64,000 nucleotides of DNA from an uncultured Candidatus Saccharibacteria bacterium (GCA_964553015.1 CAZKJE010000002.1:14175-78174), one strand, 5' to 3'. Positions 5,855 through 36,595 are shown, counted from the first letter of the stretch. Notes: generated by a model from the sequence alone, not told the origin. Made by a program: numbers and translations.

Positions 5855-5893
5855 GTAAATATTATATTCTAATTTTTAACTTTTTCAAGCTTG

Positions 5894-5922: not shown

Positions 5923-5963
5923 ACCAAACGAATAAAAATTGAACCAAAAGGAGGATTCCAATC

Positions 5964-6143: not shown

Positions 6144-6299
6144 AGTAGCACAACAACATCGCTCGCTCTGGGCAAGAAGACTCGTCTTCTGCTTCGGGCG
6201 AGTTTTCTTTTTACCTCCTTGCCCTGCTTAGCGGGGCTTGCTTCTCTTTTTTAAAGTGCTACTATTTTACCTAATGTGTCTAATGAAATACGTAAAAAT

Positions 6300-14186: not shown

Positions 14187-14864
14187 CTAATTTTCATTTT
14201 CTTCGCTATCACTATTGTCCCCAACTGGCTTCTCTGCCTTAATTGCCTTAATTTTGGTTTTCACAGCATCTTTAAGGGATTTTACTGCGTCTCCCAGAGC
14301 TTTATGAGCTTCTTTTATAAGGGCTTGTGTTTCTTTTGTTAAAGTTTGGAGAGTTGCTTTATTTTCCTCGCTAAGCTTTTCTATGGAAGTGCCAAAAAGG
14401 GCATTGGCCTCGGCAATTTTTGCCTTAGCTTCGTCTATTTTGGTTTCAGCTGTGGCGACAAATGCTTCAGCTCCTGCTGTGTCCACTCCTTTCGCTTTTA
14501 ATTTAGCGATATGGGCGACTACTCTTTCTTTTAAGTTTGTCATTCTCAAAACCGCTCCGTCAAATCTCTCCAGCGCTTTTTCGCGCCCTACGATGCGGGC
14601 TTCTTTTATTTTTGCCTTAGCCGCATCCCTTTCAGTTTTTAAAGATGCTCGCAAAGCTTCCATTTTTGCTTTCGCTTCTTCTCTTTTCATTTCAAACTCC
14701 TTTCTAAATGCGTCTCTATTTGCTTCCCATTCTTTTCTCGCTTCTTCGCGCTTTAGCCGCAGGTCATCCCTAACAGCACCTCCATTTTCTTCCGCGAGTA
14801 CAGAAGAAGTGTTAAAAGAAAGCACTAACGCCAACACCGCAAAAAAACTTAAATATTTTTTCAT
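14187..14864 (-). CDS. Secreted coiled-coil protein, hypothetical
   Basis: Signal peptide (MKKYLSFFAVLALVLSFNTSSVLA), Ala/Lys/Glu-rich heptad-like sequence. Confidence 0.5.
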   Translation of the reverse strand: MKKYLSFFAVLALVLSFNTSSVLAEENGGAVRDDLRLKREEARKEWEANRDAFRKEFEMKREEAKAKMEALRASLKTERDAAKAKIKEARIVGREKALERFDGAVLRMTNLKERVVAHIAKLKAKGVDTAGAEAFVATAETKIDEAKAKIAEANALFGTSIEKLSEENKATLQTLTKETQALIKEAHKALGDAVKSLKDAVKTKIKAIKAEKPVGDNSDSEENEN

Positions 14865-16948: not shown

Positions 16949-18109
16949 TTATTCTTCTTTTACTTCGTCAGTGGAAGCTATTTCGCCTCCCATTCCTTTT
17001 ATATCTATTCTCCAGCCGGTAAGCTTGGCGGCAAGGCGGACATTTTGCCCTCCTTTACCGATAGCGAGCGAAAGCTGATCATCGGCTACTTCTACGGTCG
17101 CCTTATGTTCCGTTTCGTCTACGTTGATAGAAATAACTTTTGCCGGAGAAAGCGAATTTGAAACGAACTGTTTTGGATCTCCCGACCACGGAATTATATC
17201 AATTTTTTCTCCGGAAAGTTCATTGGTTATGGTATTTACCCGGGTTCCTTTCTGGCCGACACAAGAGCCGACTGCATCTATGTGCTCATCGTTTGAGTAC
17301 ACTGCGATCTTGGTGCGCGCTCCGGCTTCGCGGGCTACGGATTTTATTTCCACAATGCCATTTTCTATTTCCGGCGCTTCAGTAGCAAAAAGTTTTTCCA
17401 CAAATTTTGGATGCGTGCGGGACAGGCGAAGATTTATTCCCCGCGGGGTGTCTTCCACGCTGTACAAATATGCGCGCACTCGGCGTCCGCGTTCCCAGAA
17501 CTCTCCGGGAATTTGTTCTTCGGCCGGCAATATGCCTGTCGCTCGGTTGAAGTCCACATATACATTGCCCCGCTCTACCTTTTGCACTATGCCGGAAATT
17601 ATTTCGCCTTCCTTGGTGCCGTACTCATCTATGATTGAAGTGCGTTCCGCTTCGCGTATCTTTTGGACTATGACTTGCTTTGCTGTCTGGGCGGCGATGC
17701 GGCCGTAATCATCTTTGGCTTCGAGCGGAAAAATTACTTCATCGTTGAGCTCCACCCCCTTTTTTATTTTCTTGGCATCTTCTAAGAGAATGTGATGCTC
17801 GGGATTAAAATGTACGCGTTCTTCGCCTTCATCTTTTACCGAATATTCGGCATGTTCGCCAAGTTGATGTTTTTTATCATCTTCTAATATCGCAATTGTT
17901 TCATCTACAACTATCTTCACCTGATAGAAATCCGTCTTGCCGCTATCCATGTCAAATTTTGCACGGATAATTTGTCCTTTCTTGCCGTAATCTTTCTTAT
18001 AAGCCGCCGCCATTGCCTGCTCGATGGCTTCGAGTATTTTTGCTTTTGGTATTTTTCGTTCTTCTTCCAGCTGTTCCAAGGCTGATTTGAATGTTTTTAG
18101 GTCTAACAT
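16949..18109 (-). CDS. nusA: Transcription termination/antitermination factor NusA
   Basis: N-terminal domain, S1 domain and two KH domains. Confidence 0.9.
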
Positions 18110-18140
18110 GGTTGGTTTTTTATTAAATTTTATTAAAAAA

Positions 18141-18160
18141 AGCCCTGTTTCGGACAGGAC
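18141..18160 (-). terminator. Intrinsic terminator downstream of the GNAT gene
   Basis: Minus-strand hairpin (gtcctgtccgaaacagggc) followed by a U-run. Confidence 0.55.
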
Positions 18161-18187
18161 TCATACAAAGGGAGCATAGCATAAAAC

Positions 18188-18715
18188 CTATGTCGATGCA
18201 ACATCTAGTTCCATCTCCATTTCAGGAATCATGGCTCCGCTTTTCATCACTCGCTTTTGGTCCAGCCATTTTTTGCCAGTATCTTTGAATCCAAGCTTTG
18301 TATAGAATCCTATAGCCCTTTCATTATAAGTAGCGCACTGAACAATCCATTTATTTGATGGATTCCCATGTTTTAAAACTTCTTGCCATAACATTTTTCC
18401 TATGCCCTTACCTTGATATTCTGGAGTAACATATATTACCTTAAGCTGATTTTTATCGGCGTGAAAGACAATTGTAATTACCCCCACAATCAAATTTCCG
18501 TTTTTTGCTATAAGAGTTTTTGAATCAGCGCTATCGTTCATTTTTTCCCATTTTTTACTAAGGCCCTCCTGTGTAAAACTTTTTTTGAAATGATCTTCAA
18601 CATCTTCTCTTGTTATGCCTGCTTCTTTATTTGGATATGTCTCCAACCAAGTTTCATAAAGAACTTTTACTATTCCCAACATATCTTTTTGTTCTGGCTG
18701 TGTAATTTTTATCAT
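18188..18715 (-). CDS. GNAT-family N-acetyltransferase
   Basis: Acetyl-CoA binding motif (V..EYQGKGIGKML). Confidence 0.75.
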   Translation of the reverse strand: MIKITQPEQKDMLGIVKVLYETWLETYPNKEAGITREDVEDHFKKSFTQEGLSKKWEKMNDSADSKTLIAKNGNLIVGVITIVFHADKNQLKVIYVTPEYQGKGIGKMLWQEVLKHGNPSNKWIVQCATYNERAIGFYTKLGFKDTGKKWLDQKRVMKSGAMIPEMEMELDVAST

Positions 18716-18957
18716 GTCTTAATTAATAGAATAGGAGATTAAAAATATAAGTCAACAACAATTAGAGCCATATTTTAATAAAACGTAAGCAATATATGCT
18801 CAAAAAGGCCAAAAGGGCAGTTATCCACAGAATCCACAATAGATTTGTGTTTTTGATATTTTTATGGTATACTTCTAAAGAATCAGTAAATTGTCAAAAC
18901 TTCTCAACTAATAAAACACAACCAACAAACACCTCGAAAGAGGGAAAGGAGGGCGTC

Positions 18958-19707
18958 ATGCGGCGCAACATAATCGGTTGTCTCGTTGTTCTCTTGGTCT
19001 TGGCGTTCTCTGTTAACGCACAAGACTCTGAACTCTTAACGCTTGACCGTCGTCCAGACATTTTCTCAACGAAGATGGCGGTCCAACAGGGGGTGGGCGG
19101 AGTTTTCAACTCCGTTCAAATTCCGACTAGACGTCGCGGAGCACGTCGCCCTGTGCCAACTCCCACTTATATGACGCTCGAAATGGGAATCGGAGTAGTG
19201 GGGCCTGACGAGTTCGGGAAGTACAAGGTTCCTTTCTCCATTTGGTTTCCCGTTCCGGAGGGAACCACGTTCACAGGTTACTCTGTGGATGTGAATGGGA
19301 ACAGGAGTTACCTTGGGCACAACACGGTGACCAGCGAAACTGCGAACCTCGGTTGGGCGGGTAATCTCTGGGGTCCATATACGGGAGGTGCTCTCCTGCC
19401 AGAGAGCATCGTAGGGTTCGAGGTTGAGTTTACTGGTAACTTCCAGACCTACGGTATGCATACTCCGGCACCAGGGGCTACCAGACCTCCAGTGATAGTG
19501 GACGTGTACCCCAATGGGTTGCTCTTCCTCAAGGAGACGTTCGCAGTTCCACCGGTTATCTCTCTCAACGGAAGAGGCCATCCGATTCTGAACGGATGGG
19601 TGACTCCGATGGAGGGATATACGGGACCGGACGTTGTCGTAATTAGGTGCACAGGCTTTCCTCGTTCGGAGTGTCTGACCCAGGTCGTCGACATTCCGAC
19701 CTCATAA
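18958..19707 (+). CDS. Secreted hypothetical protein on the high-GC island (the ORF-track start at 18796 is probably an upstream extension)
   Basis: Strong SD (GGAAAGGAGGG) before the ATG at 18958; signal peptide MRRNIIGCLVVLLVLAFSVNA. GC content and codon usage differ visibly from the flanking genes. Confidence 0.6.
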   Translation: MRRNIIGCLVVLLVLAFSVNAQDSELLTLDRRPDIFSTKMAVQQGVGGVFNSVQIPTRRRGARRPVPTPTYMTLEMGIGVVGPDEFGKYKVPFSIWFPVPEGTTFTGYSVDVNGNRSYLGHNTVTSETANLGWAGNLWGPYTGGALLPESIVGFEVEFTGNFQTYGMHTPAPGATRPPVIVDVYPNGLLFLKETFAVPPVISLNGRGHPILNGWVTPMEGYTGPDVVVIRCTGFPRSECLTQVVDIPTS

Positions 19708-19758
19708 CATTGAGAAGTTTAATAGAATCTGACCGAAAGGAAAGGTTCGAAGATCAAC

Positions 19759-19795
19759 CGCCCCGGTTCCGCAAGGAATCCGGGGCATAACTTTT
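19759..19795 (+). terminator. Intrinsic terminator with GNRA tetraloop (gccccggttcc gcaa ggaatccggggc + T-run)
   Basis: 11-bp stem with one bulge, GCAA loop, followed by TTTTT. Confidence 0.65.
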
Positions 19796-19865
19796 TATAC
19801 CAAAGTCTGAGTTATCCACATGCTTTCTTGATATTTTGTTTACTTTTTAAAGTATAATTGAGTAT

Positions 19866-22676
19866 ATGAACAAACTAAAATATTTTTTATTTGGCGCATT
19901 TTTTCTTTTAGCATTCGCTTTTTTATTTACTAATGTTAATCAAGTTTCCGCAGCTGGAAATTGTACGACAGATACTTGGAATCCTCCTAGTCTGGTTCCT
20001 TGGAAGACTACAGCCTCTACTCAAACATTTGACTTGACCCATACTTATAAGGATGGGTTTTTGCCTGGAGCCCCTTCTACAACTGAAACAGATTCTTGTA
20101 CAACAACAGCAAATCACGGCGCTACTTGCCAAGCGGGAGGTGTAACTGAATCATTACAAGGTCCACAGGATCCAGAATTTGGATATCCATGTAATCCAAG
20201 TGGATTAATAAACGTAACCAGTCCCATAAATAGAATAGATACACTTCTGCCAGTTTGCGGTACATGGAGTGGTTCGGGGCCGACATATACTCTCTCGGGT
20301 TCAACTGACCCGGCTGCAAGCGGGGGTAGTGGACAAAGTGGGATAAATGTTTCTGGTGGTTCTTGTACCGCTTCATCGGGGAGTTCTTGTACAGTAACTA
20401 TTTCAGATGTTGCGGGAAATCTAAAATCTTGTACCAGCCCGGTTTATGGTAATTATACAGTAGCCGCAGTTGCAAATAGTGGTGGCAGTGTTTCTCCAAT
20501 TTCTCAACCAAATGTAGCTTATGATTCTACGACAAATTTTACCGTTACCCCAAGTAATGGCTTTACTCATGCTGTTGGATCTCCAGGCTTTGGTCCTTCA
20601 GGGTGTGCTGATAATACAGGGACTTTTACTACTGGTACTAACTATCTTACTGGTAAGATTAAAAACAACTGCAACTACACTTTTAGTTTTACTCTTAGCG
20701 TTCCCGCTACTCCCACTGGTCTAACTGCCACACCTAGTTCTTGCGGAACAGGGAGAATAGATGTTTCGTGGAATGCATCCAGCGGCGCTACCAGCTACAC
20801 GCTTAAGGATGGAGCTGTTACTATTTATACCGGAGCTGCAACTTCTTTTGCTCACACTGGTCTAGTAGCGGGCTCGAGTCATAGTTACACCGTGAGTGCT
20901 ACAAATAGCGGCGGCACTTCTGCATACTCAAGCGCTGTTTCAGCGAGTGCGCCGATAGCGTGTGCTGCAGTTGTCAACGGCTCCTGTTCAGTAACCCACT
21001 ACGGTTGTACTGCAGGAACAAGCGCCAACAATGTAGACGGCGCTACTTCTTGGACTTGGGTTTGCAATGGTTCAAATGGCGGAACCAACGCATCCTGTTC
21101 TGAAGCGAAACCTTTACCCGATCTCACTGCTTCCTCTCCCACGCCAACGACAGCCACCACCGGCGTAGCGCAGACGTTCTCTTCAACTATCTCCAACATC
21201 GGCACCGCTTCAACTGGAGCTTCTTTCTCCAACTTCTTCCAGGTAGCCACAGCTGCCGGAGGAGGGGGAACTGTTACGGATCTTGCCTCTACTACAATGA
21301 CAACTCTGGCTGCCGGAGCCACTGGCACCAGCACCAAGGCCTACACCTTCCCATCTGCCGGCACATACTCTGTCCGAGCTTGCGCGGACAAGACTAACGC
21401 CGCTTCTACTGGAGTAATTACGGAATCAAATGAGGGTAACAATTGCAGTTCGTGGACAAATGTTTCAGTCACCAGCACCCCTGTCATGTCCGGCACCCTG
21501 ACTCCAAATCCTACTTCTTGTGTTATAGCTTCTGGTGCTTCAAGTTGTTCTGTCACTCTTAATTGGAGCATAGCAAATCCTGAAGGAATACCGACCGCTA
21601 TCACAGCCACAGGAATGACTAATGTGAATGTCACAAACACTCTGGCAACACCCCAATCCGGGAATCAATCTTTAACTGTTCCGTACAGTTCTAGAATATT
21701 TTATCTTTACAATAATGGAGTTCAGCTTGCTACCAGCAGTGCTACTGCCAGTTGTACAGGGGGGACTGCATGGAATGGAAGTATCTGCGCTCCCGCTATG
21801 TCCGGCACACTTACGTCTTCAGCTCCATCTTGCGTAATTGCTTCCGGAGCAAGCACTTGCATTGTAAATCTCACTTGGACTACGACAAATCCCGAAGCAA
21901 CTTCTGCGGTCACTTCTTCTTATCCTGCTCCTAACACTACTGTTTTCACTGGATTAAACGGCGGTCCTTCATCGGTTACCATTCCGTACAGTTCCAGAAC
22001 TTTCTATCTTTACAATAATGCAAAATCACTCGTGCCGACTTCTCCTAGCGGAGCCGGTATCGTCGTGACTGCAAGCTGTACAGGAGGAACAGCTTGGAAT
22101 GGAACAGTTTGCGCAAACGTTCCTCCCACGGTTAACGCCGGTCCCGATAAGGCCATAACTCTTCCTACTAGTTCTTCCGCTCCTACCGGCGCCTATGCTA
22201 CCGATGTCTCGCCTGGCACAATAAGCAGCAGATTGTGGACGAAAACTTCTGGCCCGAGTGCTACCATTACCAATGGGACGACGCTTACTCCTACGTTTTC
22301 TAATATGACAGCCGCCGGCACATACGTCTTCCGTCTCACTGCTACCGACAATCAGGGGGCTACAGGATTTGACGAAATGCAGGTTGTGGTTTCAGCTTCC
22401 GGCGGTGGAGAAGAATGCACTAATGGAGCAACGAATTATCCCGAGTGTACTATCGATGGCGGAGGATGCCTCAACGGCGCAACCAATCCGCCTCTTTGCA
22501 CCATCGGGGCAGGCACTAATGGCAACTGCGCAATCACGCCTAACACCTGTTCTTCTGGAACACCGACCGTTGGCGCATGGAATGCCTCTAACCATGTCTG
22601 GACTTGTACTGGAACGAACGGAGTGCCTGTATCATGTTCAGCCCCGAAGAGACAGCCGGACTTTATAGAAAATTAA
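19866..22676 (+). CDS. Large secreted Thr/Ser/Gly-rich surface protein with FN3-like and Cys-containing repeat modules (candidate adhesin)
   Basis: Signal peptide. An FN3-like module (GLTATPSSCGTGRIDVSWNASSGATSYTL...YSSAVSASAP). Two tandem ~110-aa repeats (MSGTLT...CTGGTAWNG). Recurring ~45-aa Cys-spaced motifs. Visibly high GC. Confidence 0.7.
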   Translation: MNKLKYFLFGAFFLLAFAFLFTNVNQVSAAGNCTTDTWNPPSLVPWKTTASTQTFDLTHTYKDGFLPGAPSTTETDSCTTTANHGATCQAGGVTESLQGPQDPEFGYPCNPSGLINVTSPINRIDTLLPVCGTWSGSGPTYTLSGSTDPAASGGSGQSGINVSGGSCTASSGSSCTVTISDVAGNLKSCTSPVYGNYTVAAVANSGGSVSPISQPNVAYDSTTNFTVTPSNGFTHAVGSPGFGPSGCADNTGTFTTGTNYLTGKIKNNCNYTFSFTLSVPATPTGLTATPSSCGTGRIDVSWNASSGATSYTLKDGAVTIYTGAATSFAHTGLVAGSSHSYTVSATNSGGTSAYSSAVSASAPIACAAVVNGSCSVTHYGCTAGTSANNVDGATSWTWVCNGSNGGTNASCSEAKPLPDLTASSPTPTTATTGVAQTFSSTISNIGTASTGASFSNFFQVATAAGGGGTVTDLASTTMTTLAAGATGTSTKAYTFPSAGTYSVRACADKTNAASTGVITESNEGNNCSSWTNVSVTSTPVMSGTLTPNPTSCVIASGASSCSVTLNWSIANPEGIPTAITATGMTNVNVTNTLATPQSGNQSLTVPYSSRIFYLYNNGVQLATSSATASCTGGTAWNGSICAPAMSGTLTSSAPSCVIASGASTCIVNLTWTTTNPEATSAVTSSYPAPNTTVFTGLNGGPSSVTIPYSSRTFYLYNNAKSLVPTSPSGAGIVVTASCTGGTAWNGTVCANVPPTVNAGPDKAITLPTSSSAPTGAYATDVSPGTISSRLWTKTSGPSATITNGTTLTPTFSNMTAAGTYVFRLTATDNQGATGFDEMQVVVSASGGGEECTNGATNYPECTIDGGGCLNGATNPPLCTIGAGTNGNCAITPNTCSSGTPTVGAWNASNHVWTCTGTNGVPVSCSAPKRQPDFIEN

Positions 22677-22747
22677 AAAATAAAATTATTCAGCAAAAAA
22701 ATCCCCCAGATAAACATTTGCGGGATTTTTTTGTTATAATAGAGAAG

Positions 22748-24511
22748 ATGCAGATCAATGAAGACAAGATAAAAAAATTTATTTTAGATTCAGGCCTCGT
22801 TTCTAAAACGGATCTCGAAGATGCTATGGAAAAAGCCGCGGAGAAAAATCAAAAGATCTCCGATTTTTTACTTTCCGAGGGAAAAATATCTGAAACGGAT
22901 ATGAGGCGGATGCAGGCTTTTGCCTTAGGCATTCCTTTTATAAGCTTAGCTGGAGAAAAAATAGAATTTTCCGTCTTGTCCCTCATTCCGGAGCCGATCG
23001 CCCGAAATTACAATATAGTTGCCTATAAAAAAAATGACGATAAATTGGAAGTCGCCATGCTGGACGCAGATGACCTGCCGGTAATTGATTTCATCAAGAA
23101 ACGCTCTGGGTTGAAAATATTGCCTCGGCTTACCGACGATGCTTCTATAAAGTCTGTACTGGTGCAATACAGGCAGAGTTTAAAGGCCGAATTTCAGAAT
23201 ATAATTCAAAAAGAAGCAAATGCACTTGCCAAAGCAGGGGGTGAAAAGACAGGAGATAAGGGAGCAGAAAAAACTGAAAGCGAACTCAAGAAAATGGCCG
23301 AAGATTTGCCGGTGGTCAAAATCGTCGACTCACTTATTTTTCATGCTATTCTCCAAAGTGCTTCAGATATTCACATAGAGCCGGGAGAAAAAGAACTGAC
23401 AGTGCGCTACAGGATAGACGGCATATTGCATGATGCCATGGTTCTGGACAAGACCGCCGGCGCCGGCATAACCGCCCGCATAAAAGTATTATCCAATTTA
23501 AAACTGGACGAAAAACGCTTGCCCCAAGACGGCAGATTTAAAATAGAGCAGAACGGAGAAAAAATTTCTTTCCGCGTTTCCACTCTGCCGACTTTTTACG
23601 GAGAAAAAACTGTTATCAGAATCCTCAAGGAAAACGCGCACGGCTTTTCTTTGGAGACGCTCGGCTTTCACGGGGAAGGACTGGAGCGGATCCACGCTTC
23701 GCTCAAACAAAAAACCGGAATGGTGCTCGCGACGGGACCGACGGGTTCAGGAAAGACGACGACGCTCTACACCATGCTCGATATTTTAAATAGGCCCGAA
23801 GTAAATATTTCTACGGTTGAAGATCCGATAGAGTATCAGATGCCGAGGGTGAATCAAACTCAAGTCAAACCCGAAATCGGGCTAACTTTTGCAAACGGCC
23901 TGCGCTCACTTTTGCGTCAGGATCCGGATATCGTGATGGTTGGGGAGATTCGCGATGGCGAAACGGCCGGCCTCGCCATCAACGCGTCTTTAACCGGACA
24001 CCTTGTACTCTCTACCATCCATACCAATTCCGCCGCCGGCGCGATACCTCGGCTCATAGACATGGGAGCTGAGCCGTTCCTCATAACCGCCACCGTCAAA
24101 ACTATCATCGCGCAGAGATTGGTGCGCAAGCTTACCCCGAATAAAGAAAAATATTTTTTGTCTCCGGCTGAGTTGAAAAATCTCGGAAACGTTGTTGACT
24201 TGGATCGCCTGCTTGGATTTCTAAAAGCTGAAAAAATAGTGGGCGCGAGCGATACTTGGGCGAAAATTCCTTTTTACAAGCCGGTAGCTTCAAGTGAATT
24301 TGAAGATGGATATTCCAGCCGAATAGGCATGCATGAGGTTCTAAAGGTTACGCCTACTATCAAGGAAATGATCATAAAAGGAAGCTCACAGGATGAAATG
24401 GAAGCGCAGGCAAAGAAAGAGGGAATGATGACCATGATAGAAGACGGAGTTTATCAGGCGGTCTTGGGAGTGACGACGCTTGAAGAAGTGTTCAGAGTAG
24501 TTTCAGAATAG
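22748..24511 (+). CDS. pilB: Type IV pilus assembly ATPase PilB (GspE family); the ORF-track start at 22604 overlaps the upstream gene
   Basis: N-terminal GSPII-like region, Walker A GPTGSGKTTT, Asp/His boxes. Confidence 0.85.
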   Translation: MQINEDKIKKFILDSGLVSKTDLEDAMEKAAEKNQKISDFLLSEGKISETDMRRMQAFALGIPFISLAGEKIEFSVLSLIPEPIARNYNIVAYKKNDDKLEVAMLDADDLPVIDFIKKRSGLKILPRLTDDASIKSVLVQYRQSLKAEFQNIIQKEANALAKAGGEKTGDKGAEKTESELKKMAEDLPVVKIVDSLIFHAILQSASDIHIEPGEKELTVRYRIDGILHDAMVLDKTAGAGITARIKVLSNLKLDEKRLPQDGRFKIEQNGEKISFRVSTLPTFYGEKTVIRILKENAHGFSLETLGFHGEGLERIHASLKQKTGMVLATGPTGSGKTTTLYTMLDILNRPEVNISTVEDPIEYQMPRVNQTQVKPEIGLTFANGLRSLLRQDPDIVMVGEIRDGETAGLAINASLTGHLVLSTIHTNSAAGAIPRLIDMGAEPFLITATVKTIIAQRLVRKLTPNKEKYFLSPAELKNLGNVVDLDRLLGFLKAEKIVGASDTWAKIPFYKPVASSEFEDGYSSRIGMHEVLKVTPTIKEMIIKGSSQDEMEAQAKKEGMMTMIEDGVYQAVLGVTTLEEVFRVVSE

Positions 24512-24533
24512 TTCTCACGAGCACCATAAATAA

Positions 24534-25751
24534 ATGTTATTTTCATACAGCGCAAAATCAAAAACGGGAGAAATCATGGAAGGAATTTTGGAGTTCCCGG
24601 ATCGTTTTTTGGCAGCGCGCGATTTGCGGTCTCGGGGCTACACGCCTATTTCTATTTCCGAAAAGGGCAAAAGTATTGCTGACAAACTTGGTTCCATGAA
24701 AGGCATGTTCTCAAAAGTAAGCGTAGGAGAGCAGATTATTTTTACAAAAAATTTAAGCGGTATGATAAAGGCGGGACTTTCGCTGTCGCGAGCGCTCTCG
24801 GTTTTACAAAAACAAACAAAGAACCCAAAACTTATTGATATTCTGACTTCGGTCTCAAGCGATATAAATTCCGGCGGAAACTTTTCCGCGGCGCTTGCAA
24901 ATTTTCCAGATGTATTTTCCAAACTTTTTACTTCCATGGTCCGTGCAGGAGAAGAGTCCGGAAATCTATCTGGCGCGCTTTCTGATATAGGAGTAAATCT
25001 GGAAAAAGCTTATTCGCTGACTAAAAAAGTTCGTGGAGCGCTCATATATCCAGGGGTAATAATGTCGGCCATGATAGTCATAGGCGTGCTCATGTTTGCT
25101 TTCGTGGTGCCGACCTTGGCGGGAACCTTTAGAGAGCTCGGGGTTACATTGCCGACTTCAACTCGTATTCTTGTATTCATCGGCAACTTTTTCTCAAACC
25201 ACCTCCTGCTAACTTTTTTGATACTAGTTTTGGCTTTCTCTGCCTTGTTTTTCTTTTTTCGCGCAAAGTTTATGGCAAAGTATATAGACTTCGTTATTTT
25301 AAAAATACCCGTTATAGGTGTTTTAGCAAAAGAAATAAATACGGCTCGTACCGCTCGCACTATCGCCTCTCTTTTGTCTTCTGGGGTTTCTATCGTTCGA
25401 GCGGTCGAGATAACGGAAGATGTCGTCCAGAATGTTTTTTATAAAAGAATTTTAAACGAAGCAAGAATTGCTATTGAAAAAGGCGCTCCTTTTTCCGCTG
25501 TATTTGAAGCGAACGAAAAGCTTTATCCGGTAATGATGGCGGAAATGGTAGCCGTCGGCGAGGAGACGGGAAAGCTATCGGACATGCTTCACGAAATCGC
25601 TCTTTTCTATGAAGAAGAAATAGAAAATAAGACAAAAAATCTTTCTACTATCATCGAGCCGGTACTGATGATCCTGATTGGCACAGCAGTGGGCTTCTTT
25701 GCTATTTCTATGATCTCTCCGCTTTATTCAATTTTGGGCAGCATAAATTAA
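24534..25751 (+). CDS. pilC: Type IV pilus inner-membrane platform protein PilC (GspF family)
   Basis: Two GspF repeat domains with three TM segments. Confidence 0.85.
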   Translation: MLFSYSAKSKTGEIMEGILEFPDRFLAARDLRSRGYTPISISEKGKSIADKLGSMKGMFSKVSVGEQIIFTKNLSGMIKAGLSLSRALSVLQKQTKNPKLIDILTSVSSDINSGGNFSAALANFPDVFSKLFTSMVRAGEESGNLSGALSDIGVNLEKAYSLTKKVRGALIYPGVIMSAMIVIGVLMFAFVVPTLAGTFRELGVTLPTSTRILVFIGNFFSNHLLLTFLILVLAFSALFFFFRAKFMAKYIDFVILKIPVIGVLAKEINTARTARTIASLLSSGVSIVRAVEITEDVVQNVFYKRILNEARIAIEKGAPFSAVFEANEKLYPVMMAEMVAVGEETGKLSDMLHEIALFYEEEIENKTKNLSTIIEPVLMILIGTAVGFFAISMISPLYSILGSIN

Positions 25752-26219
25752 ATGAAAAATTTTTACAAAAAAGGAATAAGCGCTATTGAGATATTTGTGG
25801 TAGTGGCCATAGTAGCTCTTCTCGCTACTGTCGTTATTCCTCAGTTTTCTAAAATTCGCGAAAGACAGGTTTTAAAAAGCGCTGTCAGTGACATTTTATC
25901 CAGTATAAATAAAGCACAGATAAAAACTCTGGCCTCGGTCGACTCGTCTTCTTATGGCGTGCATTTTGAATCAGGTAAAGTTATAATTTTTAAAGGGATA
26001 GTTTTTTCTTCCAGCGACTTAAATAATGAAAATGTAGATCTGACCTCGCCGGCAAATATTTCTAATGTAACTTTGGCAGGAGTAAGCGCAAGTTCAGGGG
26101 AAATTTATTTCAATCGACTGTCCGGTGTTCCCAATAAATCCGGTACGGTGACGGTATCAACGACAAATTTTGTAAAAACCATTACTATTTCCGCCATAGG
26201 CCAGGCAAGCGCGAACTAA
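25752..26219 (+). CDS. Prepilin-type pseudopilin/minor pilin
   Basis: N-terminal KKG|ISAIE with Glu at +5, hydrophobic helix. Confidence 0.7.
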   Translation: MKNFYKKGISAIEIFVVVAIVALLATVVIPQFSKIRERQVLKSAVSDILSSINKAQIKTLASVDSSSYGVHFESGKVIIFKGIVFSSSDLNNENVDLTSPANISNVTLAGVSASSGEIYFNRLSGVPNKSGTVTVSTTNFVKTITISAIGQASAN

Positions 26220-26220
26220 A

Positions 26221-26640
26221 ATGAGAATAAATTTTAAAAATAAAGGCTTTATGATGGTGGAAGTATTGGTAGCAGTCTCAATTATTACTGCTGCTATATT
26301 GGCTACGATGGCCGTCGCCCAAAAGTCTGTGTATGTTTCCCGTCAAGCTCTGCATACTACACAGGCGGCATTTTTATTGGAAGAAGGGGCGGAAAATGCA
26401 CGAATCGCGCGAGACAATGCATGGAGCAATGTCGCTTCTTTGAACACCTCGGAACAAATAGGGATTTTTACCAGAACAGTTGCTGCTTCCGGTGTGAACC
26501 GAGACAATACCACTTCAGATATTAGTGCCGCTGGCACGGATGATCCGGATACAAAATTGATCACCGTTACCGTATATTGGCCGGAAGGAGGAAACGTAAT
26601 AACCAAGACTTTACAATTTTATATTATGAATATTTTTTAG
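26221..26640 (+). CDS. Prepilin-type pseudopilin/minor pilin
   Basis: NKG|FMMVEVLVAVSII class-III signal peptide. Confidence 0.7.
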   Translation: MRINFKNKGFMMVEVLVAVSIITAAILATMAVAQKSVYVSRQALHTTQAAFLLEEGAENARIARDNAWSNVASLNTSEQIGIFTRTVAASGVNRDNTTSDISAAGTDDPDTKLITVTVYWPEGGNVITKTLQFYIMNIF

Positions 26641-26648
26641 TTGTTACA

Positions 26649-27152
26649 ATGCTTACAATTTATAAAAATAAGAATAAAAACGGTTATGCGCTTCTCGAGC
26701 TTTTGTTTTACATAGCTTTTTTCTCACTGCTTTCGATTATAGTTATAAACGCCATGATAACCATGGCGCAATCTTTCAAAGAAACAGAAATCCAAACAGA
26801 ACTTTTGCGAAGCGGATCAATAATGGAAAGGATCTCGCGAGAAGTAAGAGGAGCGATTAACATAAGCTCAATAACTACGACTGACCTCAAATTAAATACA
26901 ACAGACAGTGCCGGAACAGCAAAAACCGTAGAATTTTTAATGTCCGGTTCAAATCTGCAGCTTTTAGAGAATGAAATCCTTACCGGAAATTTAAATAGTG
27001 CGAATATAATCATTTCTGGCCTTACTTTTACGCAAATAACCACCACAGAAGGAGTCGGAGTTAAAATTGTTTTAACTGTGCAGTCTCCAAGCGATAAATA
27101 TAGCAGAACAGTGGATTTTTACGACACTGTCATTTTACGAGGAAATTATTAA
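26649..27152 (+). CDS. Prepilin-type pseudopilin/minor pilin (start moved to MLTIYKNKNKNG|YALLE)
   Basis: G|YALLELLFYIAFF prepilin motif; the ORF-track start at 26577 overlaps the previous gene. Confidence 0.65.
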   Translation: MLTIYKNKNKNGYALLELLFYIAFFSLLSIIVINAMITMAQSFKETEIQTELLRSGSIMERISREVRGAINISSITTTDLKLNTTDSAGTAKTVEFLMSGSNLQLLENEILTGNLNSANIIISGLTFTQITTTEGVGVKIVLTVQSPSDKYSRTVDFYDTVILRGNY

Positions 27153-27158
27153 TCAAAC

Positions 27159-28439
27159 ATGAAAAAAGATTTCAAAAAAATTAATAATCAGTCCCTGCCT
27201 GCCGGCCGGCAGGGCGGAGCAGCGATGCTGATAGCCGTAGTTTTTTTTCTGTTTATTTCTTTAGCAATAATTTCCGGCCTCGTGTCGCCGTCTGTGCGCG
27301 AATTCAAAAATGCCAATGATGCGGTCAGATCGAGACAAAGTTTATTTTTGTCCGAATCGGGAACAGAGGACGCCTATTTTAGATTGAAAAATGCAAAAAC
27401 TATAAGCTCTCCGGTGGTGCTGGTTTTAAACGGTAATACTGCGACAACCACTATCACAGATTCCGGATATAACGAAAAAACTGTAACGGCGCTTGGAGAT
27501 GTTTCAGCGCGGCAGAGAAAAAGTGAAATTGTTCTGACCACGGGCGACGGGGTTTCTTTCAGCTATGGTATCCAGTCAGGGGTCGGCGGATTTGTTATAG
27601 GTAACGCTGTCGTGAATGGTAATGTATATTCAAACGGAAATATCACAGGGGCTAATGGCGCTACTATTACCGGTTCGGCTTTTGCCGCCGGAGCGACGGG
27701 GGTTATTGATAATATAGATGTGGGACAGGGAGGCATAGGGGACATAAAAGCGCATACTGTGAATGATTCTACTGCTGCCGGCAATTTATATTGCCAAGTT
27801 GGCTCGAACAATAATAAATCCTGCAATACATCTCAGGCTGATCCGGAAATAGCGCCGATGCCAATCACGGAAGAGATGATTAATAAATGGAAAGCAGATG
27901 CAGAACTTGGCGGAATTTTTACTGGAAACATGATTATATCCGAGCAGACGAGCCTAGGGCCGAAAAAAATTACAGGCAATTTGTCTATTGAGGCTGATGT
28001 AGTTATTACGGGTACTGTTTATGTAACAGGGAATATTACGACTAATAACGGCGCAGAGGTTTCTTTGAGCAGTTCTTATGGGGCTCTCGGCGGAATTATT
28101 GTTGCTGACGGAAGAGTAACTCTTTCCAATAACGTTAAATTTTTTGGATCTGGCACTGCAGGCACATACATATTATTAGTCACTACAAGCGCGTGCCCGA
28201 CGGACTGTTCAGGCTTGAATGCTCTGGAAATTTTAAACAACGTAGGCGCAATACTGGTGAATGCTCAAAATGGCACGGTGCACCTCAACAATAATGTTAC
28301 CCTGAACGAAGTTGTGGGAAATACAATTATTGTAGACAATAGCGCGGTGATAAATTATCTTTCGGGGCTTGCTAACCAAAATTTTTCTTCCGGACCTTCG
28401 GGAGGATGGAACATTGATAGCTGGAAGGAGGTGGAATAA
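27159..28439 (+). CDS. PilX-like N-terminal anchor followed by an Asn/Gly-rich repeat (putative beta-helix) pilus-associated protein
   Basis: RQGGAAMLIAVVFFLFISL hydrophobic N-terminus (PilX_N-like); NGN/TGN repeats. Confidence 0.5.
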   Translation: MKKDFKKINNQSLPAGRQGGAAMLIAVVFFLFISLAIISGLVSPSVREFKNANDAVRSRQSLFLSESGTEDAYFRLKNAKTISSPVVLVLNGNTATTTITDSGYNEKTVTALGDVSARQRKSEIVLTTGDGVSFSYGIQSGVGGFVIGNAVVNGNVYSNGNITGANGATITGSAFAAGATGVIDNIDVGQGGIGDIKAHTVNDSTAAGNLYCQVGSNNNKSCNTSQADPEIAPMPITEEMINKWKADAELGGIFTGNMIISEQTSLGPKKITGNLSIEADVVITGTVYVTGNITTNNGAEVSLSSSYGALGGIIVADGRVTLSNNVKFFGSGTAGTYILLVTTSACPTDCSGLNALEILNNVGAILVNAQNGTVHLNNNVTLNEVVGNTIIVDNSAVINYLSGLANQNFSSGPSGGWNIDSWKEVE

Positions 28440-30350: not shown

Positions 30351-30693
30351 TCTTCTGTGCGTTTCCTGCTAAATCTTTTTCGTCGCCGACGGTTTCCGGC
30401 CAGACCCAGATATGCGCATGATGTATTTCTTCGCCGTATACTTGCGAGCGGACTATGTCCGCATTAAAAGCTTTCTTTTGCGCGAGCGCAATTTTTCTGG
30501 CAACTTCGAAATATTCTCCTATGTTTGGCACTTCCCATACCCAGCGGAAATGTTTCTTTGGAATGATCTGCACGTGCCCCGGAGCTATAGGCCGTATATC
30601 TAGAAAGGCTAAAAAATTGCTGTCTTCATATATCTTTGTAGCAGGTATCTCACCTTTTACAATTTTGCAGAAAATACAATTTTGTTCATTCAT
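30334..30693 (-). CDS. HIT-family hydrolase
   Basis: CIFCKI zinc motif and histidine-triad HHAHIWV. Confidence 0.85.
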   Translation of the reverse strand: MNEQNCIFCKIVKGEIPATKIYEDSNFLAFLDIRPIAPGHVQIIPKKHFRWVWEVPNIGEYFEVARKIALAQKKAFNADIVRSQVYGEEIHHAHIWVWPETVGDEKDLAGNAQKIIEAL

Positions 30694-30729
30694 AAGAATA
30701 TTATATCAAATTATGCTAGAATTTCACCT

Positions 30730-32388
30730 ATGCATCAGTATGGCGAGCTGCTAAGGAGTCTTTTAGAGAAAAGGGGAATTTCTGATCTGGAAAAAGCGGA
30801 TATTTTCCTGAACCCCAGCTATGAACGCGATTTGCATGACCCTTTTTTAATGCGCGACATGGAGCGTGCCTGTGTTCGACTGCTTGAAGCCATTGAAAAA
30901 AAAGAGAAAATAGTGATATATGCAGACTACGACTGCGATGGCATACCGGGGGCTGTAATATTAAACGACCTGTTTAAATTACTGAATTATAAAAACTATG
31001 AAGTATATATACCACAGAGAAATTCTGAAGGCTATGGACTAAACATCGAAGCCATAGATAAGTTTAGAGATTCTGGCATCAAACTTATAATAACTATAGA
31101 CTTGGGGATCACGGCAGTAGAAGAAGTTGCTAAAGCAAAAACTTACGGCATTGATACGATAATAACCGATCACCATATTCCTCATGCGGTTCTGCCGGAG
31201 GCGTTTGCAATTCTAAATCCAAAAGTAGATGATTATCCGGAAAAAATGCTCTGTGGGGCGGGGGTAGCTTTTAAGTTTGCGCAGGGAATGATAAAGATGG
31301 CAAATGGTGATTTTGCCTTTAAAATAAAGCCCGGCGCCGAAAAATGGATGCTAGATATGGCAGGGCTCGCCACTCTTTCCGATATGGTGCCGTTAACGGG
31401 GGAGAACAGAGCTATTGCATATTTCGGAATGAAAGTTATGAAAAAATCTCCGCGCCCGGGTCTGCAAAAACTGCTTGCAAAAATGAATATTGATCAGCGA
31501 TATTTGTCTGAAGACGATATCGGTTTTATGGTTACCCCGAGATTAAACGCGGCCTCGCGCATGGATGATCCGATGCGGGCGTACGAACTTCTTTCCACTG
31601 ATGATGAGGTAGAAGCCGGAAGACTTGCTAGCCATCTGTCAAAAATAAACGACGACAGAAAAAGTTTGGTAAAAGGAATCATGCGGGAAGTTAATAAACA
31701 CTTTGAGGAGAGAAAGGAGACGGATGTGATAGTGATCGGGAATCCGGGGTGGCGCGTGGGCATACTCGGGCTTGTGGCCGGTAAAATATGCGACGAATAC
31801 GAAAAACCGGTTTTCGTGTGGGGGAAAGATGAAAATGACTGCATAAAAGGCTCCTGCCGAAGCGATGGATCGGTATCTGTGGTGGAGCTTATGACCGAAG
31901 CCAAAGATTCGTTCGTAGATTTTGGAGGACACGAGCTTGCCGGAGGATTTACAGTACGGAATGAAAAGATCCATTTTCTGGAAGAAGCATTGTCTGTATC
32001 TTTTCAAAAAGTAAAAAGGGCAGTAGCGGAAAATAAAGCTCTGCATGATGTTAAAACGGAATTAGGCGCGGTCAATATAAAAAACTGGAGAGATATAGAA
32101 AAAATGTCGCCCTTCGGACTCGCTAATCATAAGCCGGTTTTTCTATTTGAGAAAGCAAAAATTGAAAAAATAAAAAAATTCGGCAAAAATGGTTCCGGTG
32201 AGCATTTGGAAATAGTTTTTTCAGACGAAAGCAGCAAAAAAGCCACAGCCGTTTCTTTCTTTTCTGGGATTGATTCATTTGGCAAGCTATTGGAGGAAGC
32301 AAAAAATGTAAATGTTCTGGCGACTTTTGATCTGTCTAGGTTTAGAGGCAGAGAGGAGCTTCGTTTGAGAATTGTTGATATAATATAG
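30730..32388 (+). CDS. recJ: Single-stranded-DNA-specific exonuclease RecJ
   Basis: DHH motifs (ADYDCDGI, ITDHH), DHHA1 domain, C-terminal OB fold; an extended -10 TGCTAGAAT lies just upstream. Confidence 0.85.
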   Translation: MHQYGELLRSLLEKRGISDLEKADIFLNPSYERDLHDPFLMRDMERACVRLLEAIEKKEKIVIYADYDCDGIPGAVILNDLFKLLNYKNYEVYIPQRNSEGYGLNIEAIDKFRDSGIKLIITIDLGITAVEEVAKAKTYGIDTIITDHHIPHAVLPEAFAILNPKVDDYPEKMLCGAGVAFKFAQGMIKMANGDFAFKIKPGAEKWMLDMAGLATLSDMVPLTGENRAIAYFGMKVMKKSPRPGLQKLLAKMNIDQRYLSEDDIGFMVTPRLNAASRMDDPMRAYELLSTDDEVEAGRLASHLSKINDDRKSLVKGIMREVNKHFEERKETDVIVIGNPGWRVGILGLVAGKICDEYEKPVFVWGKDENDCIKGSCRSDGSVSVVELMTEAKDSFVDFGGHELAGGFTVRNEKIHFLEEALSVSFQKVKRAVAENKALHDVKTELGAVNIKNWRDIEKMSPFGLANHKPVFLFEKAKIEKIKKFGKNGSGEHLEIVFSDESSKKATAVSFFSGIDSFGKLLEEAKNVNVLATFDLSRFRGREELRLRIVDII

Positions 32389-32390
32389 AA

Positions 32391-32882
32391 GTGACAGAGA
32401 AAACTATTAAAATTTATACTGACGGTTCAGCCAGAGGAAATCCGGGAAAAGCAGGCTGGGGAGCTGTTTTTCTTTTAGGCGATAAAGTTTTTGAAATGGG
32501 CGGGCGGTCCGATCACGCGACAAATAATCAGATGGAGCTCACTGCGCCAATAGAAGCGCTTAAATATTTAAAAAAATCCCCTAGGCAAGGTCTAGGGGAA
32601 AAAATTACACAGGGGAGTTCTGTGCAAATCGTGTCTGACTCAAAGTATGTTATTTTAGGTATTACCGAGTGGATCTTAAACTGGCAGAAAAATAATTGGC
32701 GAAATGCCGCAAAAAAGCCTGTTATGAATCGAGAACTTTGGGAAGAGCTGTACAAGCTTACGGAAGAATTAAAAACAACATGGGAATATGTAAAAGGCCA
32801 CAACGGCGACAAATATAATGACCGAGCAGATGAAATAGCGACAAGCTTTGCAGACAATGAGCCAGTGGAGTTGAAAAAATAA
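32391..32882 (+). CDS. rnhA: Ribonuclease HI (GTG start)
   Basis: YTDGS, MELTA and HNGD catalytic motifs. Confidence 0.85.
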   Translation: MTEKTIKIYTDGSARGNPGKAGWGAVFLLGDKVFEMGGRSDHATNNQMELTAPIEALKYLKKSPRQGLGEKITQGSSVQIVSDSKYVILGITEWILNWQKNNWRNAAKKPVMNRELWEELYKLTEELKTTWEYVKGHNGDKYNDRADEIATSFADNEPVELKK

Positions 32883-32890
32883 ATATTTCA

Positions 32891-34456
32891 ATGCAAGATA
32901 AAATTTTTCATACGGTTTGTTTTGGATTTTTATTCGGAGTGCTGTTGCGCTCCTTCTTTTTTATAAGTATATATTTTTCGCTATTAGCCGGAATTATAAC
33001 GCTCGCTTTAATTTTATTTTTTACTCTTATATCCTTCGGCCATAGCCCTACCCTCGGGCGTAGTCCTACGGGCGAGCCGGGTGAGGCAAAAAGCAAATGG
33101 GGAGTTCTGATATCTGTTTTTATTTTTGCCTTTAGTTTTGGAGTTTTTAGATTTGGTCTTGCAGATGTGCCAAATCCTGTCGCCTTTGAATCTCAAGTAG
33201 GCGAAAAAATAACTCTCTCTGGGGAAATTGTAGATGAGTCCAGTATTAGAGAAAATAATCAGCAATTGATTATCGAAACAGAAAAAGAAGCGAGTATAGA
33301 TAGTAAGACAGGAATTTTATTATCAGTAAGTTTGAGTGAGAGTTATAAATACGGTGATAAGATAAATTTTACAGGAACTCTGAAAAAACCGGAAAATTTT
33401 ATCACGGATACCGGCAAAGAGTTTGATTATATAAATTATCTGCGCAAGGACGGCATTTTATACGTCATGAGTTATCCCAAAGTTGAAATTATTTCGCGCG
33501 GCAATGGTAATTTAATAAAAAAATATTTATTTCTCATAAAAGAAAAATTTCTAAATAAAGTGAATTTAGTTATAGCAAGTCCGGAAAATTTATTAATGGG
33601 TGGATTGATCTTGGGGGAGAAATCATCTTTTAGCAAAGATCTCCGGCAGGATTTCGTAGACACCGGCACGATACACATCGTCGCTCTGTCTGGCTACAAT
33701 ATCACCATAGTCGCTGAATGGTTTATGAAACTTTTCGCTCAACTGCCATACCTGTCTAAAAATTTTGGCATAGGCATGGGTGTTTTTGCTATTATATTAT
33801 TTATTTTGATGACGGGCGGAAGTTCGACGGCAGTCCGCGCCGGCATTATGGCAACTCTCGCTCTCGTGGCTAGGGCGACGGGAAGAAATTATGATGTGGC
33901 GCGGGCATTAATTCTTGCCGGAGTCGGCATGATACTTATTAATCCATTTATTTTAGCCTTTGATGTTTCTTTCGAACTTTCTTTTATCGCAACCGTTGCC
34001 GTGATATTCCTAGCGCCAAGAATAGAAAAATATTTTCTATGGGTCACCGAAAGTTTTGGCCTGCGGGACATAGTGTCTGTAACTTGTGCTGCATACATTT
34101 TTGTCTTCCCTTTTATTCTATACAAAATGGGCAATTTATCTCTCGTAGCTCTGCCGGCAAACATTTTAATACTTCCCTTTATTCCGTTTACTATGATGCT
34201 TGGATTTCTGACTGGTATCGCCGGTCTTGTTTTGCCGATATTGTCCCTGCCCATTGGCTATATATCTTATCTTTTTTTACATTATGAGCTATGGGTTATT
34301 AAATTTTTTGCAAATTTGCCGTTTGCGTCATTTTCTTTTCCGAATTTCCCGCTTTTCCTCACTTTGCTAATTTATGCCTATTTTGTCTACTATCTTTTCG
34401 GCAGAAATATAAAAGATTTTTTTAATATGGATAAAGACGAAATAGAAATATTGTAA
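32891..34456 (+). CDS. comEC: ComEC/Rec2 competence channel protein (DUF4131 + competence domain; no MBL domain)
   Basis: Polytopic; TGTIHIVALSGYNI competence-domain core. Confidence 0.75.
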   Translation: MQDKIFHTVCFGFLFGVLLRSFFFISIYFSLLAGIITLALILFFTLISFGHSPTLGRSPTGEPGEAKSKWGVLISVFIFAFSFGVFRFGLADVPNPVAFESQVGEKITLSGEIVDESSIRENNQQLIIETEKEASIDSKTGILLSVSLSESYKYGDKINFTGTLKKPENFITDTGKEFDYINYLRKDGILYVMSYPKVEIISRGNGNLIKKYLFLIKEKFLNKVNLVIASPENLLMGGLILGEKSSFSKDLRQDFVDTGTIHIVALSGYNITIVAEWFMKLFAQLPYLSKNFGIGMGVFAIILFILMTGGSSTAVRAGIMATLALVARATGRNYDVARALILAGVGMILINPFILAFDVSFELSFIATVAVIFLAPRIEKYFLWVTESFGLRDIVSVTCAAYIFVFPFILYKMGNLSLVALPANILILPFIPFTMMLGFLTGIAGLVLPILSLPIGYISYLFLHYELWVIKFFANLPFASFSFPNFPLFLTLLIYAYFVYYLFGRNIKDFFNMDKDEIEIL

Positions 34457-34457
34457 T

Positions 34458-36591: not shown

Positions 36592-36595
36592 AATT

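Follow-up and report, generated by a model that had tools for sequence, protein, structure and literature searches.

This study concerns two adjacent genes for secreted proteins, referred to below as gene 1 and gene 2, in a window of 64,000 nucleotides (the whole stretch of DNA analysed; CAZKJE010000002.1:14175-78174 of assembly GCA_964553015.1). Gene 1 (18958-19707) encodes 249 amino acids and gene 2 (19866-22676) encodes 936, both on the plus strand, and pilB, pilC and pilin-like genes lie directly 3' of the pair. An earlier, sequence-only reading of the window had taken the pair for a GC-rich island carrying a horizontally acquired adhesin or surface-layer gene. The interpretation that we favour, and consider reasonably probable, is that the two genes form an exchangeable surface module, housed in a hypervariable slot that adjoins the pilus operon, and that their GC content is not the scar of a recent import.

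The gene pair, its products and its transcription signals

The following features of the pair were recognised.

18821-18839, plus strand: two CCACA boxes in tandem, TTATCCACAGAATCCACAA, just 5' of the gene 1 promoter; the first matches the DnaA-box consensus TTATCCACA perfectly
18845-18873, plus strand: gene 1 promoter, with a -35-like TTGTGT (18845-18850) and an extended -10 element TGGTATACT (18865-18873)
18946-18953, plus strand: gene 1 Shine-Dalgarno sequence AAGGAGGG with AAGGAGG, 5 nt before the ATG, nearly invariant in the upstream alignment A4
18958-19707, plus strand: gene 1, a 249-residue secreted protein with a signal peptide (1-21), a linker containing RRRGARRP (59-66) and, in the model, two immunoglobulin (Ig)-like beta-sandwich domains (residues ~74-170 and 178-247)
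19760-19796, plus strand: terminator-like hairpin GCCCCGG...CCGGGGC with a T-run, after gene 1
19812-19820, plus strand: second perfect TTATCCACA box, 5' of the gene 2 promoter
19853-19858, plus strand: TATAAT -10 element of gene 2, 7 nt before the ATG, without a ribosome-binding site
19866-22676, plus strand: gene 2, a 936-residue secreted modular protein with a signal peptide (1-29) and a Cys-rich N-terminal region (30-195)
22701-22740, plus strand: hairpin ATCCC...GGGAT with a T-run after gene 2 (22701-22732), overlapping a promoter-like TAAACA-18-TATAAT

The claim of the sequence-only reading that two secreted proteins are encoded directly upstream of the pilus operon was upheld by the open reading frames (ORFs) and their N-termini. 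The signal peptides, read off the sequence, are of Sec type I, with VNA preceding the cleavage site and Q following it in gene 1, and VSA preceding A in gene 2. The marks of a prepilin (a class III leader, cleavage between G and F/M-x-x-x-E, a hydrophobic helix) were found in neither protein.

The gene 1 product gave no match in Pfam or NCBIfam, and its family profile, compared with the sequences of the PDB, found nothing below E 0.05. Its relatives are few: 7 in an index of 5.8 billion proteins, 25 among 1.84 billion representatives in a profile search, and one locus in a metagenome scan with alignment A1. Members share a signal peptide, RRRxxR just after it, conserved Trp, Gly and Pro residues, a C-terminal C-x7-C and VDIP (alignments A1 and A2). 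The protein of the window shows all the traits defined from A2, two beta-sandwich domains included, and ends in the conserved Cys231/Cys239 pair and a VDIP tail. An AlphaFold model (mef05306888bd) built on a trimmed 11-sequence alignment contained both beta-sandwiches, with a predicted local distance difference test score (pLDDT) of 88 and a predicted template modelling score of 0.82; it replaced a first full-length model from 7 sequences, which was poor (pLDDT 47) and whose Foldseek matches were generic. Searched with Foldseek against the PDB and BFVD, the retained model gave only generic two-Ig matches (E >= 7e-4), namely Fab chains, complement MG domains and viral Ig-like proteins. As modelled, this is an unnamed, tiny family of secreted tandem Ig-like proteins. 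Weak profile matches to three giant PA14/Big_13 proteins (P0140, P0141 and P0145) were rejected as repeat beta-sandwich noise. An antisense ORF within gene 1 (171 codons) was likewise set aside; it is not conserved (from 55 to 242 codons in relatives), and its length does not exceed that seen in synonymous shuffles.

Gene 2 is a string of modules, given here by residue.

196-278: InlB B-repeat-like, a weak match from a fragment scan
283-365: fn3-like, from the same scan (PF00041, profile positions 2-82 of 84; E 1.7e-4, with 22.1 bits where the cut-off is 25)
374-411 and 888-924: four-Cys module C-x6-C-x18-C-x9-10-C
418-528: CARDB (PF07705, 40.4 bits against a cut-off of 22.7, E 3.5e-10)
539-643 and 644-751: tandem repeats of ~105 residues, 50% identical (E 1e-30; DNA repeat D3)
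758-842: K319L-like PKD (PF22352, 59 bits against a cut-off of 27, E 4.9e-16)
630-641, 738-749, 851-861 and 868-878: four C-x9-10-C loops

Both 105-residue repeats terminate in CTGGTAWNGxxC. The signal peptide, FN3-like module, tandem repeats and fourfold Cys motif that the sequence-only reading had listed for this protein were thus all found, the FN3-like module just below the Pfam cut-off and the repeats at ~105 residues. No curated family matched the N-terminal 250 residues, the 105-residue repeats or the four-Cys modules, and no cell anchor was recognisable. The 189 database relatives are mostly Paceibacteria proteins that share single modules, the best being Paceibacteria "CARDB domain-containing proteins"; the sole full-length relative (P0014, 37% identity) also lies in a nusA-pilB slot. 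From its sequence, gene 2 looks like a lineage-typical modular surface protein of adhesin-like make-up. The Pfam and NCBIfam scans gave no SLH or S-layer family, so the proposed surface-layer role gained no support, and our literature search found no paper connecting bacteria belonging to the candidate phyla radiation (CPR) with CARDB proteins.

Upstream of gene 1, an alignment of ten alleles (A4) contains, in order, a CCACA box at the same place in every allele, a -35 element, the invariant TGGTATAC, an AT-rich leader of ~80-150 nt, AAGGAGG and the ATG. This architecture is kept across alleles of which some share only ~25% protein identity. The predicted transcription start would give the gene 1 mRNA of the window a leader of ~80 nt. 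Its Shine-Dalgarno sequence is as unusual as the sequence-only reading had proposed, since a match of at least 6 nt occurs in only 3 of the 48 ORFs. In each of the 9 other loci folded, a strong GC hairpin with a T-run likewise follows gene 1 at the corresponding position. The spacer between the two genes contains TGTGGATAAC or the complementary sequence in 8 of 9 other loci, some alleles having a single mismatch, and none is visible in L008. Late in the spacer, mostly 7-8 nt before the gene 2 ATG, relatives have TATAAT (TACAAT in L091). The gene 2 mRNA is probably leaderless. The true start of pilB is the ATG at 22748, not the upstream TTG of the mechanical ORF, and the TATAAT of the promoter-like site stands 7 nt before it; the hairpin and promoter here are consensus matches only. 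On these signals, gene 1, gene 2 and pilB look like three adjacent units insulated from each other. No Rfam match above noise was obtained in 17500-23500.

TATAAT-like boxes were also seen 7-14 nt before many other starts of the window (e.g. 5854, 13810, 19866, 22748, 32391, 35347 and 61065). These boxes, together with the scarcity of Shine-Dalgarno sequences (3 of 48 ORFs), suggest that leaderless mRNAs are common in this genome.

The sequence TTATCCACA occurs three times in the 64 kb, against 0.47 expected (2143-2151, 18821-18829 and 19812-19820). Each copy is 5' of a promoter, 10-25 nt upstream of those of gene 1, gene 2 and the leader that precedes a lexA-like gene. In relatives (slots of L010-L089) it was counted 19 times in 150 kb of slot sequence versus 8 times in 657 kb outside, an approximately 10-fold enrichment (p 6e-9). 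The copies of the window are identical to the classical DnaA-box consensus and differ from origin boxes in occupying activator-like positions 5' of promoters, without an origin signature. A replication origin found no support as the reason for the boxes: the cumulative skew minimum at ~22 kb is local and the GC-skew profile mostly tracks gene orientation. The box is probably an operator for DnaA or another regulator. SOS control of the slot was also discarded, as GAAC-N4-GTTC occurs only at the lexA-like promoter and inside the transfer-messenger RNA (tmRNA). The promoter of the lexA-like gene itself (S24 family, 2507-3076) carries, between its -35 and -10 elements, the SOS box GAACGCTCGTTC (2169-2180), which is of Gram-positive type; the upstream region (2143-2480) further comprises a GC-rich leader with GGAGG and an ORF of ~66 codons (2280-2479).

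Base composition and codon usage

The GC content of the window is 0.416. Values for the two genes and for the mean of the 48 ORFs, overall and by codon position (GC1, GC2, GC3), were as follows (sd, standard deviation).

GC: gene 1, 0.540; gene 2, 0.481; ORF mean, 0.408
GC1: gene 1, 0.572; gene 2, 0.442; ORF mean, 0.484
GC2: gene 1, 0.472; gene 2, 0.642 (+4.6 sd); ORF mean, 0.356
GC3: gene 1, 0.576 (+2.65 sd); gene 2, 0.360; ORF mean, 0.385 (sd 0.072)

The local rise in GC that the sequence-only reading had announced is real, and 13 of the 25 most GC-rich 500-bp windows are located in 18900-22600; this rise combines two unrelated effects and ends without a sharp edge on the right. In gene 1 the third position takes part, and its GC3 is the highest of the 48 ORFs. 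Gene 2 is GC-rich because threonine, serine, glycine and alanine (T/S/G/A) make up 52% of its residues, which places the excess in GC2. The profile is therefore not flat, while the GC3 of gene 2 lies below the ORF mean, so that synonymous composition is not shifted across the whole of the supposed island. The return to background at pilB did not hold either: pilB has a GC content of 0.448 and a GC3 of 0.48, with 500-bp windows up to 0.526. Elsewhere in the window a comM-like gene (900-1700) reaches 0.548.

The codon shift said to be common to both genes (CTC, GTC, AAC and GGC) dissolved on counting, as enrichment was confined to CTC and AAC and to gene 1. Two-fold codons of gene 1 differ strongly from those of the remaining ORFs (GAC 88% vs 32%, GAG 73% vs 25%, TTC 77% vs 25%, AAC 75% vs 29%, with AAG in 4 of 4 cases), and CTC accounts for 53% of Leu codons vs 14%. 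Gene 1 is depleted in GGC (10% vs 37%) and GCC (0 of 10), and its GTC frequency is that of the background. All four of the named codons are at background in gene 2, whose third positions are rich in T (0.42) and poor in G (0.12). By Karlin codon bias with a resampling null, no ORF of the window stands out more than gene 2 (z 6.5) and gene 1 (z 6.4), and the two depart in different directions.

The same two patterns recur in relatives. Over 12 AT-rich loci, gene 1 relatives have a GC3 of 0.47-0.75 against mostly 0.15-0.45 in their neighbours, and gene 2-like genes have a GC2 of 0.55-0.64 and a GC3 of 0.23-0.36 at every locus. The preference of gene 1 for CTC and AAG recurs as well. At most loci gene 1 is enriched at two-fold and four-fold sites, in contrast to the window, where only two-fold sites are affected. 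GC-biased gene conversion as the sole cause is weakened by gene 2, which sits in the same slot with background or lower GC3.

The nusA-pilB slot in relatives, and its surroundings

The pair is bordered by the following genes.

16949-18109, minus strand: nusA, the left border of the slot
18188-18715, minus strand: GNAT acetyltransferase
22748-28439, plus strand: type IV pilus genes, with pilB (22748-24511) and pilC (24534-25751) recognised in Pfam and NCBIfam scans
25752-27152, plus strand: three pilin-like genes with pilin family matches, unlike gene 1 and gene 2
up to 28439, plus strand: a 426-residue protein following the pilin-like genes, without a family match

The left block (H+-pyrophosphatase, nusA and GNAT acetyltransferase) is entirely on the minus strand, divergent from the pair, and the GNAT gene is missing from this position in the relatives examined. 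The pilus gene order recurs in relatives. The pilB relatives are 65-86% identical and all come from metagenome-assembled genomes of Nomurabacteria/Paceibacteria; on this ground the host of the window is judged to be an uncultured CPR bacterium of that group.

In every Nomurabacteria locus recovered, i.e. in 12 loci including the window (the others being L001, L004, L005, L006, L007, L008, L009, L090, L091, L093 and L094), a gene 1 relative precedes a gene for a large secreted protein rich in T/S/G/A, or for a fragment of such a protein. The pair lies between nusA and pilB in L001/L018, L005, L006, L007, L091 and L094, and in at least 8 with L004 and L090, whose contigs end early. It is followed by pilB in the window, L001, L005, L006, L091 and L093, and probably also in L007 and L094; there the contig end truncates the ORF that occupies the place of pilB, and no domain was called in it. 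L093 has a gene 1 relative, a fragmentary gene 2-like ORF and the pilus operon; in its interval 3527-6828 only a 272-residue C-terminal gene 2-like fragment is open before pilB, and the preceding 2.5 kb has gene 2-like GC content and no long ORF. This gene 2 is probably decayed or mis-assembled. In L008 and L009 the pair is found among unrelated genes, away from any pilus gene.

The pair is far from universal: gene 1 was detected in 1 of 80 species-representative genomes chosen by pilB similarity (L018). In a survey of 65 loci with at least 3 kb upstream of pilB, 34 had a large T/S/G/A-rich ORF next to pilB, 7 had nusA adjacent (an empty slot) and 24 had other content. In the pilB tree the carriers of gene 1 fall in one subclade together with the non-carriers L010 (sister to the window), L038 and L046. 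As to an absence of the island from relatives, these loci point both ways: 7 slots are empty, and at least 8 other lineages carry such a pair in this very place. Presence here in all relatives had been named as the finding that would speak against acquisition if the genes also had native composition; the position is shared in those lineages, and the composition of gene 1 is not native. Relatives without gene 1 often have another secreted protein or lipoprotein in the slot, with a GC3 of 0.46-0.68 (L017, L027, L028, L030, L038, L046, L072 and L078). Several of these carry an HExxHxxGxxH zinc-protease-like motif (L028 with a weak Matrixin match, E 0.003), and their genes adjoin a large T/S/G/A-rich gene. 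By comparison of these loci, the nusA-pilB interval is a hypervariable slot for cell-surface genes.

The divergence of gene 1 alleles exceeds that of their surroundings. L001 and L007 are 97% identical in NusA and 95% in PilB, with a synonymous divergence (dS) of 0.61 in nusA, vs 48% identity in gene 1 and a proportion of synonymous differences of 0.76 (saturated). Between L001 and L004, dS is 0.90 for nusA vs 2.04 for gene 1, and other pairs show the same trend. Since gene 1 has diverged more than nusA at synonymous sites, its alleles appear to be older than the genomes carrying them, which implies exchange between lineages. The gene-wide ratio of nonsynonymous to synonymous divergence (0.07-0.30) indicates a constrained protein under overall purifying selection. 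The gene 2 of L008 is 81% identical to that of L006, and their gene 1 partners are only remote relatives, a mismatch which suggests that the two genes are swapped independently.

No hallmarks of mobility were noted: the region has no flanking repeats, the sole tRNA gene of the window lies at 43989, not nearby, and domain scans detected no integrase or transposase in the ORFs neighbouring the pair. Variation mediated by repeats or by a diversity-generating retroelement was rejected, as sequence of gene 1 and gene 2 is repeated nowhere else in the 64 kb and there is no template-like repeat; no reverse-transcriptase domain occurred among the window ORFs scanned.

Beyond the pilus operon lie tpiA, pgk, recJ, RNase H and comEC. 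The recJ, RNase H and comEC genes, with a metallo-beta-lactamase-fold gene, occupy 30682-35327, after tpiA/pgk, and this gene set fits a DNA-uptake role for the pilus region. On the other side of the slot, a 225-residue ORF (14187-14864, minus strand) has no family match and contains four copies of a 31-nt direct repeat (D1); its homologues in relatives are unnamed secreted proteins encoded between the H+-pyrophosphatase and trigger-factor genes.

Several further features of the window were recorded. Across its full length Rfam reported only one tmRNA and one tRNA. The tmRNA (39143-39535, minus strand; 119.6 bits, not reported by ARAGORN) adjoins smpB (39547-39993). The tRNA is a tRNA-Ile with a UAU anticodon (43989-44062), which is uncommon in bacteria, and ATA makes up 40% of the Ile codons of the window; a mechanical ORF (44004-44624) overlaps it, and the start of this ORF is probably wrong. 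In an isoleucyl-tRNA synthetase-like gene (56948-60448, 1166 residues) a histidine-phosphatase (His_Phos_1) domain interrupts the catalytic domain midway (from residue ~524 to past 611). The lowest GC content of the window, 0.27 per kb, was found at 36500-38500, which includes ~1 kb of unannotated sequence and a CYTH-domain gene (37007-37564) with a GC content of 0.276 and a GC3 of 0.20.

Origin and possible role of the module

The interpretation of the pair as an exchangeable surface module can be developed as follows. Gene 1 would be transcribed separately, from a strong promoter through a leader of ~80 nt with a strong ribosome-binding site, to its own terminator. Its product would be a small Sec-exported protein with two Ig-like beta-sandwiches after an Arg-rich linker, perhaps serving as an accessory or tethering subunit. 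The gene 2 product would be a Sec-exported string of beta-sandwich and Cys-knotted modules (fn3-like, CARDB, PKD and repeats). Most likely the module works extracellularly, in binding to a host or substrate, next to the pilus and not as part of it; we infer its function in surface adhesion from the domain content of the proteins and the position of their genes. Variation among relatives would arise by whole-gene swapping within the slot, for which the conserved promoter and terminator spacers (TGTGGATAAC box, TATAAT) probably supply homology and serve as crossover sites. The GC enrichment of gene 1, which is family-wide and extends to all three codon positions, would be stationary, held by selection or by a biased process.

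Several observations weigh against this interpretation. The adhesion role is read from domain names, and a wall or membrane anchor is recognisable in neither protein. A lack of co-variation between gene 1 and gene 2 (L006 vs L008) weakens the case for a specific complex. The enrichment of gene 1 spans GC1, GC2 and GC3, mostly at both two-fold and four-fold sites, and looks more like a mutational or foreign signature than like classical codon optimisation, and the HU gene of L004 and L007, expected to be highly expressed, has a GC3 of only 0.26-0.29. One family member is, in addition, at native composition in a prophage-like contig of 61.6% GC, and the gene 1 family may ultimately be of foreign or phage origin.

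That last observation also speaks for the alternative that gene 1 came from a GC-rich donor or its phage and is ameliorating or re-imported, perhaps as a protein that masks the pilus receptor or excludes superinfection. The member in question (P0133, family profile E 1e-35, own GC3 0.71) is encoded at 8001-8654 of L092 (GCA_044867665.1, JBIOVK010000398.1), convergent with tape-measure-like and J-like tail-fibre genes and with an excisionase-like gene and an IS1595 transposase nearby. This context is prophage-like, and the family may have been captured long ago from a phage whose host was GC-rich. The alternative would also accommodate the enrichment at all codon positions (at most loci at two-fold and four-fold sites), the patchy distribution (1 of 80 species representatives) and an allele GC3 of 0.47-0.75, as partial amelioration would give. 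However, all 10 aligned alleles retain the AT-rich promoter, the leader and the ribosome-binding site, and independent foreign imports would not share such a control region; synonymous sites are saturated and GC3 is nevertheless high everywhere, which points to a stationary and not a decaying GC3. Moreover, P0133 is the only high-GC member examined, the family was not found in IMG/VR viral contigs or among 50,697 phage genomes, and the four-fold sites of gene 1 in the window are at background (0.51 vs 0.52), the excess being confined to two-fold codons. The relatives of gene 2 all belong to Paceibacteria/Nomurabacteria, often at the same position. We regard this alternative as unlikely for gene 1, and a recent import of the pair from a GC-rich donor is not supported. 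Of the horizontally acquired adhesin of the sequence-only reading there remain a modular, adhesin-like protein and a variable insert.

If gene 1 were instead very highly expressed, its codons, promoter, ribosome-binding site and terminator would reflect selection for output or mRNA stability, and the island would have no meaning for evolutionary origin. The extended -10 consensus, the rare AAGGAGG (3 of 48 ORFs) and the strong terminator agree with this, as do the excess of NNC/NNG two-fold codons and CTC in the window, with GGC and GCC depleted, and the recurrence of the CTC/AAG preference in relatives. Selection of this kind does not account for the raised GC1 and GC2, for four-fold sites that are raised in most relatives (especially in G-ending codons) or for the HU genes of L004 and L007, which lack such bias, and we find the explanation rather improbable. 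We give an equally low standing to a broader proposal, in which the slot is a dedicated, recombination-driven host-recognition locus: interchangeable secreted genes under a DnaA-box-like operator (those of gene 1 relatives with tandem Ig domains, of giant CARDB adhesins and of the HExxH lipoproteins of other lineages), inserted between conserved terminator/promoter spacers, would set which host or surface the episymbiont binds. The stationary GC-rich coding of gene 1 would then be due to selection, to GC-biased conversion at this hotspot of exchange or to an ancestral capture from a phage with a GC-rich host.

A place for the two proteins in the pilus itself, or as cargo that depends on it, is very improbable; the models for this would be the tip adhesin PilY1/PilC and the secreted factor TcpF. 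In its favour, the pair keeps its place beside pilB across very divergent alleles, and PMC12281837 cites host attachment by means of type IV pili for a cultivated Saccharibacteria strain. On the other hand, both proteins have ordinary Sec signal peptides and not prepilin leaders, terminators and separate promoters divide the pair from pilB, and Pfam and NCBIfam scans gave no similarity to PilY1, PilC or TcpF. The pilus operon occurs with an empty slot in 7 relatives, and the pair occurs away from pilus genes in two lineages (L008 and L009). The suggested cooperation with the adjacent pilus thus retains the argument of position, against those of predicted separate transcription and of location elsewhere in two lineages.

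Among known systems, gene 2 resembles the CARDB/PKD/fn3 surface proteins of Paceibacteria (Parcubacteria) and other bacteria in its signal peptide, its CARDB and PKD domains above cut-off and its beads-on-a-string arrangement of beta-sandwiches; it differs in lacking an anchor motif and in having an N-terminal 250 residues, repeats and four-Cys modules outside any curated family. With pilus-linked adhesins (PilY1/PilC; the Streptococcus sanguinis PilB minor pilin, PMC8179133) the pair shares adhesin-like modules beside pilus genes and strain variability. The genes of the window differ from them in their Sec signal peptides, their insulation from pilB and the absence of sequence similarity. This likeness is of a general kind and implies no membership of that group. 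Phage moron and superinfection-exclusion genes (cor/llp-type) are placed beside tail-fibre genes, as is P0133, a small secreted protein beside a J-like tail-fibre gene. Gene 1 itself has no sequence or fold match to phage proteins, and the other members examined are chromosomal in Nomurabacteria, so that the moron likeness is a lead only.

Nomurabacteria, like other CPR bacteria, are believed to live in attachment to other microbes. A slot whose content differs even between genomes with 97% identity in NusA is a candidate locus of partner specificity, which could be tracked in metagenomes. Our results also indicate that a GC "island" can arise from amino-acid make-up, as in gene 2, or from a conserved, lineage-wide coding bias, as in gene 1, and that GC profiles alone over-call horizontal transfer in AT-rich genomes. 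The puzzle at the core of the locus is a small secreted Ig-like protein that keeps GC-rich coding in many AT-rich genomes.

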